A DNA stretch of 64,000 nucleotides from the sequence record NC_005859.1. One strand, written 5' to 3'. Of the stretch, positions 1,795 through 63,892 are shown one piece after another; position 1 is the first letter of the stretch; every line of letters begins with the position of its first letter. The position numbers and the translations under genes are program-made. The notes beneath the pieces were generated by a model. It was not told the DNA's origin and did not search any database. It saw only the letters and a program-made list of their open reading frames with translations. The stretch is from Escherichia phage T5.

Positions 1795-4581
1795 GTGTTT
1801 TCTATCCTCCAAGGTCACGCCGGATTTTCTCGTGATTTAGCAACAGGTATTTGGCGAGAAATCAAAGCGGAAGATTATACCTTTGCCAAGCGATTCTCGA
1901 AAGAGCATCCAGAAGGTAAACCAGCTTCTATGCCCTTCAAATTTGATGTAATAGAAGAGCACGACCCACAAAGCCTTGCCGAAATGTTACCCCTCATGAG
2001 ACGTTTAACGTCTGACCCTCATATCGTTGCGGTGCGAGGTCGATGTCTCGCACCTAAAAATAATGTGCGACGTAAGAAAGGTAACTTTAATGTATCTAAT
2101 CCTAGTAATATTATTGCTATGGACGTGGATGGTATCCTAGATACCGGTGGGTATGACAAATTTAATCTTGTTGGTATGGCCCGCCACATTATTAAGATGT
2201 TGAATAGTATTAGTGAGGATATGTTTCCTCTTGATGCAGGGTTTATTGCTCATGCATCGTCTTCGGCTGGGCTAAAACCAGGTATCCGAATGCACTTAAT
2301 GCTAGAATCTAACGTCAAGGTAACTCAGGGTCAGCTAAAGTTCTTATTTACATCTATCAACGATAGTAGTAAGCAAAAATTTGGTTTTGATATTGCCGAC
2401 CTAGCTTATTATTCATCTGTCCAGCTCCACTATTTTGCCGACCCCTTATTTAGCGATGGTATTGTTGATCCGTTTAAAGCGGAGAGTAAGCCACGTCTGG
2501 TGTATGTTAAAGGTTCGAAAGTAAATTTGCCCAATAATCTGGTTGACTATGAAACAACTAGAGGGGAGTTTAAGGAAGAGTTTTATTCTTTACTTGATCA
2601 AATTAAAGGCAAAAAGATTGCTTCTGATAAAGTAGAAGAAACCATCAGCGAGTTAGAAGAGGCTGATGATGGAGTGTATTTGCGTATTATCCCCAAACTA
2701 TACCATAGAGCATTAGAGGATGGTGTTGATTTTGCATGGCTAGAACGTGAGATTAAACCAGCTTTATCTGAATATATTGCAACTAAAGATAACAGTCGTA
2801 ATATTCAAGATTACTTTAATAACGGTCGTAAGCAGGCTCTCAAAGCGTTTGTTAATAATTCTAAACGTGAGATTCCATTAAATCTGAAAGGTGTTCCACT
2901 TAAGAAATTAGAAGTGGATTCTCCACCAGAAGTTCCATACCTGAAGATTAACATTGTGCCCCCAAAAGGCCATATAACATTTGTTAAGGCAAGTCTTGGT
3001 ACTGGTAAAACTACGGCAGTAACTAAATGGCTGGACGCAGGTGTTCTTCCAGGCAACTTTTTAGCAGTTACAAATACTAGAGCACTGGTATCTTCAAATG
3101 CCAAGAAATTTAGTGCAGGACAATACGATAAGTCTGTAGATATGCTCAACTTTAAACGTGGAGCTATCGATCGTATGTCCACAACTATTCACTCTTTGCA
3201 TAAGTTCAAAAGTTTTATTGGGCAAATAGACACCATTTTTATTGATGAATGTGACGCTGTAATGAATGACCTATTATTCGCCCCTGTTGTTAAACAACGT
3301 CGCGAGTGTATTCAAGTTCTACGTGACATCCTTATGACAGCTAAGACTGTAATCTTATCCGATGGTGATATTAGTGCTGAGACGATTGAAGCATATGGTT
3401 CTCTAATTGATTTTGATAAACCAGTAGCATTTTATAATCATCACCGTAAAATGCTGTCAAAAGCACACGCTTATGAGTTTCCTGATGAATCCAGTATTTG
3501 GGTTGCACTTCAGACTTCTCTAGAGATGGGTGAGAAATCTATTCTAGTATCTGATTGTGGCCCGGATGAGCTGAATGAGAAGGGTATGGCACTGCGTCGT
3601 AATACGGGTGCGTTAGTTAAGGAAATCCATTCAAACTCCACCTCAGATGTGGATATTCGACGTATTCTGGATTATACAACTAATGAGCTAATTGATCAAC
3701 AAATTGATTGCTTATTATGTAGTCCATCCGTAACGAGTGGCGTTGACTTTAACTATTTCGATAATGTGTTTGTTATTACTAGAACCAGTAATCAAGCGCC
3801 AAACATGCGTTTCCAAGCAATCAGGCGCGACCGTGGTGCCCAGAACATCTATTATTTTATTGATAAATCTACGAGTGGATTCTCTGCAGGTTCTGAGCAA
3901 TATAATATTGATGAAGGTTGGCTGGAGTTAGCACAGCAATTATACGCACGTCGTAGAGAGCTGGAATCTAGAAACTATACTAGTACCTTACGTTATTATT
4001 TGCTTGATCAGGGTGCAACTATTGATATTTTCAGCGAAAGCTGGGGAACTATTGAAGGTGCTGGTAAAGAATATACAGAAGAGCGAATCAAAGCTATTCT
4101 GCATTCAACTCCAGATTATTGTGCCCCACGTCATGCAGATGCATATGAAGCTAAACTACTTCTTGTTCGCTATTATCATCTTGAGTCTATTAAAGATGTA
4201 ACAGTTGAGCATGTCGAACAATATATCAAAGATAAACCGAATGATCGAGCTGCATTCTTCCATAAGATGCACGAGATGTTCTGGGAAGATATTAAGAAGT
4301 GTTCAAATGTGACCATTAAACCATTCATAGAGGCTCTGAAAGGTAAGAAGAAAGACTTCTTCCTTAAAACAGGTCAGAGTGCCAACCCAAAATATGCTAG
4401 AATGTATCTTGGTATGATGGGTATTGGTAAGGATATGAACACTGAAAATATTGTAGACTGGTACAGAACCTATTGTAAAATCGAGTGTATGCCAATTCCT
4501 TTCAAATTCATGACAGAGGAAGAGAGGGCTATGGCAGAAGAAGTAATGTCCGAACTTGGAGCAACTAATGAAGATGCATAA
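1795..4581 (+). CDS. large P-loop ATPase, putative replication/origin-binding helicase-like protein
   Basis: 928-aa ORF, GTG start with RBS aggag; Walker A LGTGKTT; Walker-B-like FIDECD. Confidence 0.7.
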   Translation: MFSILQGHAGFSRDLATGIWREIKAEDYTFAKRFSKEHPEGKPASMPFKFDVIEEHDPQSLAEMLPLMRRLTSDPHIVAVRGRCLAPKNNVRRKKGNFNVSNPSNIIAMDVDGILDTGGYDKFNLVGMARHIIKMLNSISEDMFPLDAGFIAHASSSAGLKPGIRMHLMLESNVKVTQGQLKFLFTSINDSSKQKFGFDIADLAYYSSVQLHYFADPLFSDGIVDPFKAESKPRLVYVKGSKVNLPNNLVDYETTRGEFKEEFYSLLDQIKGKKIASDKVEETISELEEADDGVYLRIIPKLYHRALEDGVDFAWLEREIKPALSEYIATKDNSRNIQDYFNNGRKQALKAFVNNSKREIPLNLKGVPLKKLEVDSPPEVPYLKINIVPPKGHITFVKASLGTGKTTAVTKWLDAGVLPGNFLAVTNTRALVSSNAKKFSAGQYDKSVDMLNFKRGAIDRMSTTIHSLHKFKSFIGQIDTIFIDECDAVMNDLLFAPVVKQRRECIQVLRDILMTAKTVILSDGDISAETIEAYGSLIDFDKPVAFYNHHRKMLSKAHAYEFPDESSIWVALQTSLEMGEKSILVSDCGPDELNEKGMALRRNTGALVKEIHSNSTSDVDIRRILDYTTNELIDQQIDCLLCSPSVTSGVDFNYFDNVFVITRTSNQAPNMRFQAIRRDRGAQNIYYFIDKSTSGFSAGSEQYNIDEGWLELAQQLYARRRELESRNYTSTLRYYLLDQGATIDIFSESWGTIEGAGKEYTEERIKAILHSTPDYCAPRHADAYEAKLLLVRYYHLESIKDVTVEHVEQYIKDKPNDRAAFFHKMHEMFWEDIKKCSNVTIKPFIEALKGKKKDFFLKTGQSANPKYARMYLGMMGIGKDMNTENIVDWYRTYCKIECMPIPFKFMTEEERAMAEEVMSELGATNEDA

Positions 4582-50676: not shown

Positions 50677-52599
50677 TTAGGTAAGGCGTTGAATTATAAG
50701 TTTAATATTAGGTAAGCATGCTTTCATGCCAATTATATTACTCATGGAAGAATCTAACCAAATAGAGATATTATTATTTCCATCATTTCTCATATAGTAA
50801 GTTAGAGTATAGTATCCTGTTTGCCCAACAGATCCAGGCAACCCAGATACCCAATATGGTGTTGGATTATACGCAGCAGCCTGCAATTTACAAGCGTTTA
50901 CAACTGTACCTTTTATAGTAAAGAATGGAACGTATTCTCCGGCTGGTAGAGATAGTATTTGATGCAGTTTTTTATTTATGGTATTCCCCCCTATCCTAAA
51001 TCTACTATCACCGTATTCTGCCCCTTGGGATAACATTTCTGTAGGATTGAAGCAACCAATACCGCCTGCGGATAGCCATGTATCATCTATAAACTCCATA
51101 GTACATACAATAGCACCATTTCTACTGCTATTAAGATCTAACCCCACAGTACCAACATGTACAGATCCATTACCCTGGAATACTATGTTTCCAGATAATA
51201 TAGTGCTACCACTACCTCCCAGGAGTCTTAATGGTAATAAATTCTCACTCCAAACGTCGCCATAGTTATTACCTATTTTTGGTGGATTACTAGATACATA
51301 CCAAGATGCTGAAGGTAAAAAATTATAAATACTAACAACATTAGCATGTAAGCCACCAACATTACCACCTTTAATACTAGGAGCATTATTGCTCTCTGTG
51401 GTTGGTAGCCCAAATGTTGCTATACCTGATATTCCTGTTGAGGGAGAATCTTTACTTAGATTACAACCAACATCACGAAAATCAGCTCTGTTACCAACGT
51501 TGAAATTTTTCTCTATAAAATTAATAAATTTCCAAGATGTATTATTAACATTAACCCCTTTAATAATAAATTCTCTTGGGCTGAGCTTAATGTCATTACC
51601 GTTAAATAACCCACCGTCTATATTATACCCAGAACCATTGTATACTAGGTTAGTAACATACCATGTAATTTTAGATGGATAAATGCCTAAATGTTCGCTG
51701 TAGATACCTATAGGTCCATTGGCAGAATCATTAGGATCTCCCATACTTTCCCAGTAAGCATAGTTAGTAGGATCAGCACGTGCGAAACCTACGGAATACT
51801 TTGGTGATTCTGGATTACTGGGGTTATACGTAAAGTTAAGGGCTCCAGAGCTCGAAGCTCCCTGCACAGCCCCACCGGTAGTATAGTTTGGTCCTTCCAT
51901 ACCATAAAGAACCCTATTACAAGACCTACCACGAACGTATATAGCATTAAAACCAAAGTTCCTAGCTCCTGGGTGTCTAACATAATCACTAGGGATAGTT
52001 AAGGTTCCTGCATCAGCCACCACATAACCGGAACCACTCCACGCAGATTTGTAAAGAGCAGCACCACCTAAGTACATTGCACTTGATGCAAACCCCCTTC
52101 TCCCACTAAAAGCACCGAACATATGTTGACATCCTGTGCCATCTCTTAACTTTTGTGGTATAGTGCCACTAGTACCCGTATTAAAATAACCTACATCAAG
52201 TGAAAGATCGGCACTAGCTGTTATTTGTGTTTTTAATCCACCCTGAGACATAATCTGAGGATTTATAATACCATAGGCTTTTGCACCTACTCCCATAGAC
52301 ATGCCAGATAGCATATGTCTAGAGCCATCAGAAAACTCAATCTCTGTTAATACAACTCTATTAGGGTCATTATTATGTAGCTGTGTAACTCTACTAGGCA
52401 TTTCAGACCAGTAATAGTCACCAGCCCCCTGATCCAATCTTAATCCAGTAGAATGAGTTTCCGTTATAATTACGTGCGACATATCTGAATGAAAGATGGT
52501 TTGGGAATCAGGGTTGATATGTTGGTTAGTATCTCCACCACTACCCCTTCGCAGTGAGAGTATAGATTTGTTATTTAGCTTGCCAGCGAAAAAACTCAT
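50677..52599 (-). CDS. oad: receptor-binding tail protein (pb5-like, FhuA-binding)
   Basis: 640 aa, same length as T5 pb5; Gly/Asn-rich beta protein; adjacent to llp. Confidence 0.75.
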
Positions 52600-52618
52600 A
52601 AGTTCTCCAAAAATTTAG

Positions 52619-52647
52619 TTGCTTATACTGCCATAATTCTGTATAAT
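52619..52647 (+). promoter_or_regulatory. sigma70-type early promoter for llp
   Basis: -35 TTGCTT, 17-bp spacer, -10 TATAAT, PN25-like TAGTATTATAAATT downstream. Confidence 0.6.
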
Positions 52648-52678
52648 AGTATTATAAATTAAATAGGGGAGAATGTAA

Positions 52679-52912
52679 ATGAAAAAATTATTTTTAGCTA
52701 TGGCAGTGGTACTTCTTTCGGCTTGCTCTACTTTTGGACCTAAAGATATTAAATGTGAGGCATACTATATGCAGGATCATGTGAAATATAAGGCTAATGT
52801 TTTTGATAGGAAAGGGGATATGTTTTTGGTGTCACCAATTATGGCCTATGGATCTTTCTGGGCCCCCGTAAGCTACTTTACCGAAGGAAATACATGCGAG
52901 GGAGTTTTCTAA
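52679..52912 (+). CDS. llp: lytic-conversion lipoprotein Llp (receptor-blocking superinfection exclusion)
   Basis: 77 aa; signal peptide with lipobox LLSAC; same length and position as T5 Llp. Confidence 0.8.
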   Translation: MKKLFLAMAVVLLSACSTFGPKDIKCEAYYMQDHVKYKANVFDRKGDMFLVSPIMAYGSFWAPVSYFTEGNTCEGVF

Positions 52913-53075
52913 GTAAAAACCACCTTAGTAACCATCACCACTTAAGATGAACCTAGTGCAGAATTAGTTCAGGATACCACACAAGACACTATGGAAGGTG
53001 TGATGGGAATATTTACACTAATCACTGCAATTGCTAGAGTATTTTAAATACCACACTTATAGGAGCATGAAAGAT

Positions 53076-53204
53076 ATGTCAAACAAAAGAAAGAGCAGAC
53101 GTGGAGAAGTGTACGATAGCTGGATTAATAGCTTTGGATTAGGAACTATTTTATTCTTTATTTTCGTAGGTTTTTGGTTAGCAGCTATGGCGGGGTGGAT
53201 TTAA
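53076..53204 (+). CDS. small membrane protein (42 aa)
   Basis: hand-translated; RBS aggag 10 nt upstream; basic N-terminus then hydrophobic helix; not in ORF track (<60 aa). Confidence 0.45.
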   Translation: MSNKRKSRRGEVYDSWINSFGLGTILFFIFVGFWLAAMAGWI

Positions 53205-53311
53205 TGGAATGGGTAATTATTGCGTTGCTAGGGGTTGTGATTATTGGACAATGTATTTTAGATAATCACTTAGCTAGAATTGAAACTTTATTAACGGAGA
53301 AGCGTAAATGA
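53204..53311 (+). CDS. small membrane protein (35 aa)
   Basis: hand-translated MEWVIIALLGVVIIGQ...; ATG overlaps upstream stop (TAATG). Confidence 0.4.
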   Translation: MEWVIIALLGVVIIGQCILDNHLARIETLLTEKRK

Positions 53312-53502
53312 TGGAAGTAGTAGCTATAATAACAGTAATACTAGTCTGGGCAATTTTCATTGCTTCTTGCACCGTGTACGTTCGCCTAAAAACTCTAGAA
53401 GCTCAAGTAAAACAACAACAATTTGCTATAGAAAAATTAGTAGAACTCCAACGTTGTGATAGCATTCGTATTCTGCAAATTGAGAGGGAATTAGATGTTT
53501 AG
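53308..53502 (+). CDS. small membrane protein (64 aa)
   Basis: N-terminal transmembrane helix then coiled region; start overlaps upstream stop. Confidence 0.5.
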   Translation: MMEVVAIITVILVWAIFIASCTVYVRLKTLEAQVKQQQFAIEKLVELQRCDSIRILQIERELDV

Positions 53503-53740
53503 CATTATAGTTGCTTTTATTATCGGAATAATCGCGGGAGTTTTCGGAATGACTGCGGCTATTAACAAGCATCGTAAATACATTGCGGAAGTATCGCGGG
53601 AGATTGCGGAAAGGGAGCGGAAGTTTGACGAAAAACGTGCGGAGTTTGAGCGGGAGTGGTCGGACGGTTCTCGGGCGTCGCGGAAGAGATTCCGTGAGTT
53701 CAGACCAAAATACGGAGTTGATGACCATTCTATGCGCTAA
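53495..53740 (+). CDS. small membrane protein (81 aa)
   Basis: N-terminal transmembrane helix then charged ER-rich tail; start overlaps upstream stop. Confidence 0.5.
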   Translation: MFSIIVAFIIGIIAGVFGMTAAINKHRKYIAEVSREIAERERKFDEKRAEFEREWSDGSRASRKRFREFRPKYGVDDHSMR

Positions 53741-53850
53741 TTGGGAAATCTCGAAATTTCATAAGATTACACATGAAGGTGTGTCCACTGCCTCCGGCGA
53801 AAATACTTAGTCTGCTAACCGCCACCCCCGTTACTATTACCATGCTAACT

Positions 53851-53887
53851 GTTTCACCCTGCAACCATTTTAATTGCAGGGTGAAAC
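53851..53887. other. perfect 14-bp-stem hairpin at late / pre-early junction
   Basis: gtttcaccctgcaa - ccattttaa - ttgcagggtgaaac; no adjacent U-tract. Confidence 0.6.
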
Positions 53888-53904
53888 AATTTCAACTTTA
53901 ATTA

Positions 53905-54639
53905 TTACGCAACTTTTAATTTCTCAATATATTGTTGCGGGCTGCAACTATATTCTGCGCGTTCTTCTTCGGTCATACCTTCCCAACATAATTGCAGGCG
54001 GTCGGCTAGGAACTGATAATCATTATCATCCTCAAGAGATTCATCAATAAAGGTTTCACCTATCAATGTCACGCCGATTGATAGAATATCATTAACGGCT
54101 TGTGCGTCCAGCGTTTTAAATCCGTATGACGCTGCCGCTGATAGCACGCCTTTATGATCATCAATCATTGTAAAATCAGCGTTCGGATATAATTGTTTGA
54201 ATAGCCCAAAATAGTAACTTTTATAAACTGCGTCTTTGCTGTGGTATATCTCGCTAACTTTATCAGCCTCAAAATATTTGTGTAGTGTATCGCGGGAAAA
54301 TACACGGATATTACTATCACCACGACCGCGCAACCCTTGTTTACGCAAATAATAATAGTCCGACTTGCTCATTAGTCGAGCGGTGCAAATAATGTTTAAA
54401 GTATTTGCGTCATTCATGCACTGGCGCATATATGTAACAAGGGGCAATAGTGTATCTTGCATTATTAAATCATGTTTGCAGGCTTCATTTTTATACTTAT
54501 TTAAATCTAAATTGCCCTCGCTATCAAAGCAAGGCGCTACACGATGAAACGAATTAATGATAGTGCCGTCCAGATCCCAAATCATGACGCGGGAAATATG
54601 CGGGAAATTACGGGTAATATTCGTTTTAACTTGATTCAT
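53905..54639 (-). CDS. dmp: 5'-deoxyribonucleotidase (HAD family), Dmp-like
   Basis: 244 aa; HAD motif I IWDLDGT; terminal-repeat-like position next to A1. Confidence 0.75.
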   Translation of the reverse strand: MNQVKTNITRNFPHISRVMIWDLDGTIINSFHRVAPCFDSEGNLDLNKYKNEACKHDLIMQDTLLPLVTYMRQCMNDANTLNIICTARLMSKSDYYYLRKQGLRGRGDSNIRVFSRDTLHKYFEADKVSEIYHSKDAVYKSYYFGLFKQLYPNADFTMIDDHKGVLSAAASYGFKTLDAQAVNDILSIGVTLIGETFIDESLEDDNDYQFLADRLQLCWEGMTEEERAEYSCSPQQYIEKLKVA

Positions 54640-55486: not shown

Positions 55487-57157
55487 TTACGCAAAGAATT
55501 TACCATTCTTAAAGTCAATCAAAGTGCGTTGACCGTTTGCATAGGTAATAATATGCGTTTGAGTCCAGCTAGACGCGCCAACGTTGTAACCCATGTCCAG
55601 ACTACCAGTCACGCCAGCGGTATAAACGCCGCCGTAAATGCTGGCGGTGTGGGTGTGTCCGGTGTTTAATTTGCCCAATTTCTTAAACTGTTTCGGGTTG
55701 CCACGGCTCCCGTTAATGCCGTTGTGACCGTGTACGCCGCATTCAATGCCTGCAATCTTGAAAGATTGGTCAGTGGTCAGGAAAATGGCGTTAAATTCAC
55801 AGCCTGCAACCTTGCGCAGCGCATAATCAAGCACGTTAAAAGTATCGTCTTTTTCTGCAATAGCTCCATAAATCGCAGCATTCAGGCGGTGATATAGTTC
55901 CGCGTTTGCTGGGTCGTCTTTAATGTTAGCATTACGATCATCTAACCAGCGGGATAGCGCCAGATCATGATTAGATTCAACAATGATTGTTTGAGAAAAA
56001 TCACGCTCCATTGATTCCAGTACGCGCCCCGTATCGATAAGATCATCTAATACCTTATCACGTCCGGCGGCATATTGTTTCGCTAGGAATACGCCAGATG
56101 CGCGGTTGTGATGGTTGCGTGATGTAAAATCATGCACGTCGTGTACAAACTGATATTTTGGTTTAAGAATATCAACAAGCCCGTAGGTGTCACCATGCCC
56201 CCAAGACGCAGCGGCGCACTCCTCATCTAATTTTTCAGCGTGAATGTCGCCATATTGTAAACCTAAAACGTGCCCCGTTGTTTCATAACATCCGGCAGGA
56301 GTGGCGCAAGTATTCAAATCATAAAACACGCCGCTCTCGTCCATCGTTTCAAGCTGGCGCACAAAAAACTCACCGTCCTCGTCAAACTCAACAATAAGCG
56401 CACCGAAGTTATGCAGCGCCTCGGCCTTTTGTCCTGCTTTCTGCTGGATGTAATTTTTTAGCGTTGCCGTTCCGGTTGAATACATACGGCGCACAATTTC
56501 ACCTTTTAAAGCTGGCACGCTTTCGGCGGTGATTTTAGCCGCTCCAATTGCTAGACCTTCAAGATTCAGCGCGGTTGCAGTTTCAGCGAATCCAGAAAGC
56601 GGATAATCTGCGGTGGGTAAAACGTTAATTTCAGCCATGAAAGCAAATCGGCGATTATTTAAAAACACGTTTTTATTGCAGATATATTTGTCAAATGCGG
56701 AATCGTATCTGATACCGTCGGCGCCCTCGCCATTTTGAAAACCGTTTTTGTTATAGATAAACTTGCTAACCAGCAAATCAGCGCCGATAAATTGGGCGTA
56801 TTGTTCAAGTGAGGCTAAAAAGTTTTTATGCGGGAACGTATTATTCTGAATCGATGTAATAATAAAGCGTTTACCTTGTTTTACTTCCCATTGCTCAACC
56901 GTGCTAGAAACAATCCCCGCCGCTTCTGGGCGCTCATCGTTTTTAATGGCTTTTGCTACTTTCGCCGCTTTCGGTTTCGCTGGTTTATTTGCTTCCAGCC
57001 AGTCACAAATTGCGGTAGAGTGTTTTGTTGTATCGTAAACCATTTTTGAAATATCGTCGCAAACTTCCAATTTAGTAGCGCGCAGACGTTTACCGTAGAA
57101 ATTAAAGTCAGCGGCCATTTTCAGGATAACGGTTTGTTTTTCTGCGGAAATAACCAT
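55487..57157 (-). CDS. A1: A1-like pre-early protein with metallophosphoesterase domain
   Basis: 556 aa, same length as T5 A1; calcineurin-like motifs GDIH, GDTYG, ESNHD, GHNG, HTHT in C-terminal half. Confidence 0.75.
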   Translation of the reverse strand: MVISAEKQTVILKMAADFNFYGKRLRATKLEVCDDISKMVYDTTKHSTAICDWLEANKPAKPKAAKVAKAIKNDERPEAAGIVSSTVEQWEVKQGKRFIITSIQNNTFPHKNFLASLEQYAQFIGADLLVSKFIYNKNGFQNGEGADGIRYDSAFDKYICNKNVFLNNRRFAFMAEINVLPTADYPLSGFAETATALNLEGLAIGAAKITAESVPALKGEIVRRMYSTGTATLKNYIQQKAGQKAEALHNFGALIVEFDEDGEFFVRQLETMDESGVFYDLNTCATPAGCYETTGHVLGLQYGDIHAEKLDEECAAASWGHGDTYGLVDILKPKYQFVHDVHDFTSRNHHNRASGVFLAKQYAAGRDKVLDDLIDTGRVLESMERDFSQTIIVESNHDLALSRWLDDRNANIKDDPANAELYHRLNAAIYGAIAEKDDTFNVLDYALRKVAGCEFNAIFLTTDQSFKIAGIECGVHGHNGINGSRGNPKQFKKLGKLNTGHTHTASIYGGVYTAGVTGSLDMGYNVGASSWTQTHIITYANGQRTLIDFKNGKFFA

Positions 57158-63191: not shown

Positions 63192-63320
63192 CTGTATAAA
63201 TATACAGTAGGATAACCTGGGGATAAGTCTGTTGATAACGCTTCAAAATGGCTAGGATTTTGTCAAGGCGAATCGTGCTGTTGATAAGTCTGTGGATAAC
63301 TTAAATAACAGTGTTTCTCA
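63192..63320. repeat. right arm of inverted repeat, with DnaA-box cluster and 16-bp palindrome
   Basis: palindrome ctgtataaatatacag 63192-63207; DnaA-box-like 9-mers (rc TTATCCACA at 63291-63299; variants at 63209-63239 and 63279-63287); tail cttaaataacagtgtttctcac mirrors the left arm. Confidence 0.65.
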
Positions 63321-63323
63321 CTT

Positions 63324-63480
63324 CCGTTTTTAAATACGAATCATTATCATTCGTATTCCGCTTTTTAAATGAGAATCATTCCGCTTTTTAAATGAGAATC
63401 ATTTCACTTCCTGAATAGTTCTCATTCCCTTTCTTAAATGAGAATCATTATCATTTGCATTTCACTTTTTAAATGAGATT
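63324..63480. repeat. array of ~22-bp direct repeats (CCGCTTTTTAAATGAGAATCATT)
   Basis: two perfect tandem copies 63358-63403 plus three degenerate copies; each holds the small dyad AATGA-n3-TCATT. Confidence 0.75.
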
Positions 63481-63509
63481 GATTCTCATTATCATTCGCA
63501 TTCAGGCGA

Positions 63510-63527
63510 GCAGGGCAATTGCCCTGC
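63510..63527. other. perfect 18-bp palindrome
   Basis: gcagggcaattgccctgc followed by gcttttg. Confidence 0.7.
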
Positions 63528-63533
63528 GCTTTT

Positions 63534-63756
63534 GTGCAAATCCGACATTTGCCCCCATGGATTACGCGTGGGCGTGTATGTGCAAATCCGACAATTTTTG
63601 GTAGTGTGCGAATCCGACCCGAAAAATTTTTATAGTGTGCAAATCCGACAATGAATTTTCCCAAAAACTCCAGCAATCACGAACTGCGTTCGAATCCTGT
63701 GGAATTAGCTAGAGTATGTGCAAATCCGACATGTGTTGAGATGTGCGAATCCGACA
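63534..63756. repeat. iteron-like array: six copies of 14-bp GTGC(A/G)AATCCGAC(A/C)
   Basis: copies at 63534, 63580, 63606, 63646, 63718, 63743 with irregular 25-72 bp spacing, all same orientation, non-coding. Confidence 0.8.
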
Positions 63757-63892
63757 AGATTTTTGTGACTTCGATGGGAGGGTGTGTGATTGTATGGGTT
63801 TGAGGGGAAGATGAGAGAGCGAGAGAAATTTGGGAGGCTAGAAGGATATGGGCGCAGGATTGGTGCGGAGCACCTGATTTGCGGGGATTTTG

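Follow-up and report, generated by a model that had tools for sequence, protein, structure and literature searches.

Exclusion proteins of small size located in the inner membrane are known from T4 (Imm and Sp), HK97 (gp15) and P22 (SieA), and p16.7 of phi29 serves as the comparison system for the membrane tethering of phage DNA. A known exclusion gene of T5 is llp, whose product, a lytic-conversion lipoprotein, blocks FhuA. Although T5 has long served as a model phage, the majority of its genes are without an assigned function, and this applies to the four small genes analysed here, which are located directly downstream of llp and co-oriented with it. The analysed window comprised the final 64,000 nt of the 121,750-nt T5 reference (the T5.159 coordinate 110826 equals window position 53076 plus 57750), and its part 52600–54000 matched phage T5 AY587007 in megablast with 100% identity over the entire length. 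In the local gene order the terminase large subunit is followed by sciB, the terminase small subunit (both on the minus strand), and the llp region, with llp as the 5' neighbor and possible co-transcription partner of the cluster, is organized as follows:

50677–52599, minus strand: pb5/oad, receptor-binding protein
52679–52912, plus strand: llp, lytic-conversion lipoprotein (annotated in AY587007, X75922 and AY692264)
53012–53040, plus strand: candidate sigma-70 promoter (TTTACA, 17 nt, TG-n-TAGAGT), with 9 of 12 consensus matches and an extended -10 TG; absent from the GenBank annotation
53076–53204, plus strand: orf1, 42 aa (T5.159, T5p155, ORF148, phrog_8596)
53204–53311, plus strand: orf2, 35 aa (T5.160, phrog_6369)
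53308–53502, plus strand: orf3, 64 aa (T5.161, phrog_5851)
53495–53740, plus strand: orf4, 81 aa (T5.162, phrog_6447 "membrane protein")
from about 53782: right terminal repeat (boundary annotated in AY587007)
53850–53888, no strand assigned: putative terminator within the repeat (hairpin with 15 perfectly paired bp), common to the cluster and the convergent dmp
53905–54639, minus strand: dmp
55487–57157, minus strand: A1

The cluster was already present as orf1–orf4 in the 1994 llp/oad/dmp entry X75922 and has since been named ORF148–151 in AY587007, T5p155–158 in AY692264 and T5.159–162 in the annotation used in PMC11879866. The sequences and coordinates in these entries were identical to those of the cluster, the start of the first gene being the sole disagreement, and all records label the four genes either as hypothetical or as "membrane protein". 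The four proteins matched the PHROG families 8596, 6369, 5851 and 6447 with E-values of 4e-32, 1e-26, 1e-31 and 7e-47, respectively, covering the full profile each time; the matched families carry no function. A literature search found no paper naming T5.159–162 or T5p155–158 in its text, and the publications on Llp, BF23, DT57C, BASEL and the T5 pre-early genes were silent on the cluster. The ORFs themselves are not new, and the earlier note, made from the sequence of the window, is a correct re-description of known hypothetical T5 genes. That they are real genes for membrane proteins is almost certain. The best explanation overall, i.e. known, translationally coupled membrane-protein genes which condition the cell membrane, is proposed tentatively and at clearly less than even confidence.

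Coding status and expression signals

The four ORFs of 42, 35, 64 and 81 aa were found on the plus strand as had been described, and their claimed overlap and translational coupling were confirmed: the junctions overlap by 1 nt (TAATG, orf1/orf2), 4 nt (ATGA, orf2/orf3) and 8 nt (orf3/orf4), and the whole unit has the orientation of llp. A Shine-Dalgarno duplex with the 16S 3' end was predicted at every start, with energies of -6.3 to -6.8 kcal/mol (AGGAG with -6.5 kcal/mol for orf1), against a background in which just 8.8% of 388 other ATGs of the window reached -6 kcal/mol.

The GenBank entries disagree on the start of the first gene, which is either TTG at 53031, giving 57 aa (AY587007, AY692264), or ATG at 53076, giving 42 aa (X75922 and the T5.159 annotation). 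Both upstream candidates, TTG 53031 and a further ATG at 53067, lack a Shine-Dalgarno sequence, and the latter is frequently replaced by ACG, ATA or ATT in relatives. Since ATG 53067 is not conserved and neither upstream start has a ribosome-binding sequence, ATG 53076 was taken as the start of orf1.

Orthologues were collected from 25 fetched T5-like loci. The dN/dS ratios, calculated by the Nei-Gojobori method and pooled over 17–25 relatives, were 0.12 for orf1, 0.21 for orf2, 0.31 for orf3 and 0.35 for orf4, the last value being raised by the replaceable tail of the protein. In 12 collinear loci the variable sites peaked at codon position 3 in orf1 (24 of 37), orf3 (30 of 60) and orf4 (34 of 65), and the signal was equivocal in orf2 (12 of 27). 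Judging from these ratios, all four genes are under purifying selection, and the low dN/dS together with the position-3 excess in three of the four ORFs places their coding status far beyond chance. A different explanation, in which AT-rich intergenic DNA produced the ORFs by chance or the true gene would be a 100-aa ORF on the opposite strand (53426–53728, minus strand), could refer to the very small size of two of the ORFs and to the antisense frame being open in T5. It retains practically no probability and is already refuted by the comparative data: apart from the selection and codon-position signals and the Shine-Dalgarno sequence at each of the four starts, hundreds of genomes contain the ORFs in intact form, while the antisense ORF has no start codon in most of the relatives and is interrupted by stops in several. 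The antisense ORF is an artefact produced by the codons for E, R and K that abound on the sense strand in orf3 and orf4.

A scan found no terminator between llp and orf1, and the fold of 52905–53080 had a z-score of +0.93. AY587007 lists the llp promoter as the putative early promoter T5P41, and with no terminator-like structure in between, transcription reading through from it into the cluster is plausible. The -10-like TA(G/A)A(A/G)T element of the candidate promoter directly upstream of orf1 was retained at the same place in loci with either of the two llp types described below. Early expression of the four genes was assumed, and it would follow either from read-through from the llp promoter or from the predicted upstream promoter.

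Downstream of the cluster, the region 53735–53910 folded with -40.9 kcal/mol (z = -3.0), and a rho-independent terminator is annotated there in AY587007. Because the hairpin lies inside the terminal repeat, a copy of it should also be located at the extreme left end of the genome. The right terminal repeat starts only 42 nt past the orf4 stop codon. Its non-coding part at 63217–63763 contains dense short direct repeats (TGTGCRAATCCGAC in six copies and ATTCCGCTTTTTAAATGAGAATC in five), paired TGTNGATAAC motifs resembling DnaA boxes, and inverted repeats at 63368–63490; presumably, this is the repeat-rich untranslated region said to hold the T5 injection stop signal.

Conservation and natural variation of the cluster

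In a tblastn search of 50,697 phage records, orf1 was found in 446 and orf4 in 442 records, and T5 Dmp at an identity of at least 80% in 440 records of the same set, which suggests, by comparison of the record totals alone, that orf1 and orf4 are core genes of the T5-like group. The orf3 gene was present in 302 records, 110 of which had less than 60% identity. The 189 records obtained for orf2 are an unreliable count, since 35 aa is too short for this search. In the 25 examined loci, orf2 was always present; orf3 was gone from seven of them and truncated in one more, and overall roughly one third of the relatives lack it. The seven loci lacking orf3 carried two distinct 34-aa forms of orf2 (MGV... 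and MEVV...), and another locus (L027) combined the MEVV form with a divergent orf3. Because the orf3-less loci differ in their orf2 form and L027 keeps orf3 next to the MEVV form, the pattern suggests that orf3 may have been lost more than once. Two loci (L013 and L015, positions 2555–2710) had an additional 51-aa gene between orf1 and orf2, a paralogue of orf2 (hhalign 95.7%) with the same MEWVII start and RIETLLEERK end and a 16-residue insertion.

The C-terminal residues 68–81 of orf4 are replaceable: in approximately 10 loci they were swapped for alternative tails, in most cases with a homing-endonuclease gene located directly 3'. Such genes, coding for 157–184 aa, either overlapped the orf4 3' end or followed it immediately in L015, L016, L020, L021, L022, L024, L025, L026 and L028, at approximately 3160–3830 in locus coordinates, equivalent to about 53700–53780 in the window. 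From its sequence, the junction between the orf4 3' end and the terminal repeat looks like a homing hot spot. The L028 allele of orf4 lacked 17 residues, which removed the C-terminal portion of the helix together with the basic residues behind it. In other orf4 alleles the charged helix was shortened in frame by 7 residues or lengthened by a duplication of 4, and both kinds of change fit a continuous helix. In two loci (L014, 3243–3458, and L017, 3071–3274) an extra soluble ORF of 67–71 aa (MKEFG...ITQEELEKMGITQ...), missing in T5, was present between orf4 and dmp.

The earlier proposal had connected the cluster with the neighboring genes for Llp and the receptor-binding protein. An envelope-directed function was a reasonable, if unspecific, suggestion, but the connection turned out to be positional only, and the comparative data weaken the argument drawn from it. 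The cluster was the same next to the T5-type llp (FhuA; L004, L009 and L017) and next to the unrelated BF23-type llp (BtuB; most other loci), with DNA homology between loci of the two llp types beginning only about 40 nt upstream of orf1. A primer published for cloning of the BF23/DT57C llp corresponds, in reverse complement, to the region around the start of orf1 (PMC4728585).

The comparison was extended across Demerecviridae for the position between the receptor-binding gene and dmp. The divergent phage Eos (L030, 2911–4398) is devoid of llp and has an orf1 homologue directly behind the receptor-binding gene; next come four ORFs unrelated to those of T5, of 80, 107, 76 and 183 aa, each with an N-terminal helix and a coiled coil. 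The Klebsiella phage GlastoCabaret of Sugarlandvirus (L031, 5341–6030) contained two unrelated ORFs of the same build at this position. Homology was undetectable between the T5 proteins and the same-position ORFs of Klebsiella Sugarlandvirus, as well as between the large ORFs of Eos and Sugarlandvirus. The longest ORFs of Eos (183 aa) and Sugarlandvirus (153 aa) had Ser-rich, Cys-containing tails. The Proteus phage M4H10_20 of Novosibvirus (L032, 5635–7424) had five tandem soluble proteins of 115–126 aa, which look like a paralogue array and likewise gave no detectable homology to the T5 proteins. Overall, proteins built from a single membrane helix and a coiled coil seem to accumulate at this position. 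The retention of the cluster beside either llp type and of the position in the llp-less Eos points to a function independent of the receptor.

The functional data found came solely from the CRISPRi-ART screen of T5 (PMC11879866, supplementary file 16), in which the genes T5.159–162 had scores of -3.9, -3.6, -4.1 and -3.6, respectively, with p = 0.24–0.91, and all four, together with llp, were called "Not Fit". The authors of the screen described its sensitivity as low outside the pre-early region (PMC11879866), so that for these genes a "Not Fit" call is weak evidence of dispensability. The knock-down data suggest that the four genes are individually dispensable, and the natural loss of orf3 and the L028 deletion allele of orf4 were also counted toward this.

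Predicted topology and homology searches

According to the earlier note, each of the proteins starts with a hydrophobic helix. This was correct for orf2–4, but in orf1 the helix is C-terminal (residues 20–42), preceded by 19 basic and polar residues (MSNKRKSRRGEVYDSWINS). The topology check which it had recommended gave one strongly hydrophobic segment of 18–19 residues in each protein, with a mean Kyte-Doolittle hydropathy of 2.2–2.7. Five of the first nine residues of orf1 are K or R, and its N-terminus contains a KRKSRR cluster; orf2–4 have zero K/R ahead of the helix and 2.4–4.2 within 15 residues behind it. By the positive-inside charge distribution, all soluble parts were predicted to be cytoplasmic: orf1 would be tail-anchored in the inner membrane with its basic N-terminus in the cytoplasm, and orf2–4 would have an N-out/C-in orientation with their helical and basic C-terminal parts also in the cytoplasm.

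The invariant positions were distributed differently among the four proteins. In orf1 they formed the C-terminal FWLAAMAGW. In orf2 the N-terminal transmembrane helix is followed by a near-invariant GQCxLDNHLARIE and a basic C-terminus, and in orf3 by a heptad-patterned helix with an invariant QxERELDV at its end. The N-terminal helix of orf4 (invariant G11, G15 and G18) is followed by a charged helix and a basic tail, with ERER...FExEW invariant and SRASRKRFR of the tail largely so. Small-residue motifs in the helices, as well as the heptad patterning, suggest that the proteins undergo self- or hetero-association within the inner membrane. When the four sequences were connected through glycine-serine linkers and modelled with AlphaFold2 from a paired 15-sequence alignment, each was drawn as one long helix, at low confidence (pLDDT 40.8, pTM 0.22).

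The K/R clusters of orf1 (KRKSRR) and of the orf4 tail (SRASRKRFR), as well as the layout of a transmembrane helix, coiled coil and basic region, would agree with a membrane tether for the phage DNA or for the replication/packaging machinery, comparable to p16.7 of phi29, in which nucleic acid would be bound by the basic orf1 N-terminus and orf4 tail. We consider this improbable, since a DNA-binding domain was undetectable in profile and family searches, the genes appeared dispensable in the CRISPRi-ART screen, and the last 14 residues of orf4 are freely replaced.

The predicted topology also bears on the suggestion of a holin- or antiholin-like activity made in the earlier note, here considered more broadly as lysis timing by holin-, antiholin- or spanin-like proteins. 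Apart from the small size and membrane location of the products, such a role would be consistent with the i-spanin outline of orf3 and orf4 (N-terminal helix and coiled coil) and with the adjoining lipoprotein gene llp. Nevertheless, it was judged even more improbable than the tether. A holin gene belongs in a lysis cassette beside the endolysin, while the cluster sits between llp and the terminal repeat, at a distance from the T5 lys at 19.9–20.3 kb, and C1 was listed as a separate holin by the authors of the screen (PMC11879866). In the T5-like phage OSYSP, Rz-like spanins were reported beside the holin and endolysin (PMC11664485). An i-spanin has a periplasmic coiled coil reaching an outer-membrane partner, whereas the positive-inside rule places the C-termini of orf2–4, and with them the coiled coils, in the cytoplasm, and the soluble parts of the four proteins comprise 16–60 residues; even 40–60 residues look, in our judgement, too short to span the periplasm. 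Moreover, the function of Llp is known, and the expression of the cluster is probably early, not late.

The searches for relatives gave nothing above threshold for orf1–4 in Pfam, NCBIfam and PADLOC; PADLOC had no matches, and those in NCBIfam were far below the cut-offs. In Pfam, orf4 gave matches under the gathering threshold to LapA_dom (PF06305; 22.5 against 28 bits), with weak matches also in 16 of 20 orthologues, and to the ZapG-like family (PF06295; 16.4 against 33.5 bits). Homology of orf4 to E. coli YhcB (ZapG/LapD) was rejected at an hhalign probability of only 22%. A profile search of PDB sequences gave only weak coiled-coil noise. A word-indexed search of 5.8 billion proteins produced 81 matches, every one of them T5-like, and when 1.84 billion representative proteins were searched exhaustively with an HMM of orf4, five clusters resulted, all T5-like. 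As far as these searches can tell, what the four genes encode is specific to the lineage of T5-like phages. Among the four proteins, paralogy was supported neither for orf2 and orf3 (22.9%) nor for orf3 and orf4 (0.6%), and visual inspection of the small terminal-repeat ORFs (T5.005 and T5.009, for instance) revealed no paralogue.

The weak family matches of orf4 and its layout, which is that of the N-terminal third of YhcB, belong to the evidence for a host take-over or counter-defence function exerted from the cytoplasmic side of the membrane. In this case the membrane-anchored helices with their basic tails would inhibit, by binding, a host factor in or near the inner membrane (the divisome, FtsH and regulators of envelope biogenesis are examples) or an abortive-infection effector acting on the membrane. 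Such a function fits the predicted location of all soluble parts in the cytoplasm better than an exclusion role does. It would also agree with the possible early expression, with the dispensability in a laboratory K-12 host and with the unrelated ORFs of the same build at this position in Eos and Klebsiella Sugarlandvirus, a turnover expected of host-interaction genes. Against it, the family matches stay under the Pfam cut-offs (22.5 against 28 bits for the best one) and the YhcB comparison at its 22%, no PADLOC match and no NCBIfam match above the cut-offs was obtained, and orf1, with a dN/dS of 0.12, shows a degree of conservation atypical of an arms-race gene. Host take-over is a possible but doubtful explanation, almost as likely as the exclusion role considered next.

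Proposed role and comparison with known systems

The preferred reading is that the four genes would form an accessory early module which, whatever the outer-membrane receptor, would condition or protect the inner membrane of the infected cell. Most likely it would add a further layer of lytic conversion or superinfection exclusion, effective when the DNA crosses the inner membrane, which is assumed to be a step common to T5-like phages regardless of their receptor. Such a receptor-independent role in membrane conditioning or exclusion is a possibility about which doubt prevails. It was favored because the cluster adjoins llp, may be expressed early, is apparently dispensable and is conserved across receptor types. 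A small inner-membrane protein dispensable for single infection is what would be looked for in this case, and the hydropathy, the "Not Fit" calls (in a screen of low sensitivity) and the loss of orf3 correspond to it. The more specific version, in which the four peptides would make up one inner-membrane complex, conserved across the T5-like phages and lacking homologues elsewhere, that guards or reseals the membrane so that no more DNA is injected via the tape-measure channel, whatever the receptor, is unlikely. Against the exclusion role stands the predicted topology, since cytoplasmic soluble parts are unexpected in a protein meeting the incoming DNA or tape-measure protein from the periplasm. 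Furthermore, llp alone reportedly gives full T5 resistance (Decker et al., 1994), in which case a second layer is not needed to explain exclusion.

Should the cluster act during inner-membrane passage of the DNA, or on a membrane factor of the host, it would offer a handle on poorly understood membrane events of T5, among them the opening and closing of the channel during the two-step DNA transfer. It might also add an exclusion or counter-defence function useful in the design of phage cocktails.

Among the known systems, the two-component spanins Rz/Rz1 share with the T5 locus the proximity of a lipoprotein gene to genes whose products combine an N-terminal helix with a coiled coil. They differ in that Llp blocks a receptor, while the T5 proteins have the opposite predicted topology and are much shorter. 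In common with the N-terminal third of YhcB, orf4 has a glycine-rich N-terminal transmembrane helix, a basic stretch and a cytoplasmic E/K/R-rich helix, but it is only 81 aa long compared to 132 aa and its family scores are below the curated cut-offs, so the resemblance is one of architecture and not of family membership. The exclusion proteins Imm and Sp of T4, gp15 of HK97 and SieA of P22 differ from the T5 cluster in showing no sequence similarity to it and in the location of the soluble parts, which in T5 are predicted to be cytoplasmic rather than periplasmic. Yet, like them, the T5 products are small membrane proteins apparently unneeded for single infection, and their genes adjoin the exclusion gene llp.
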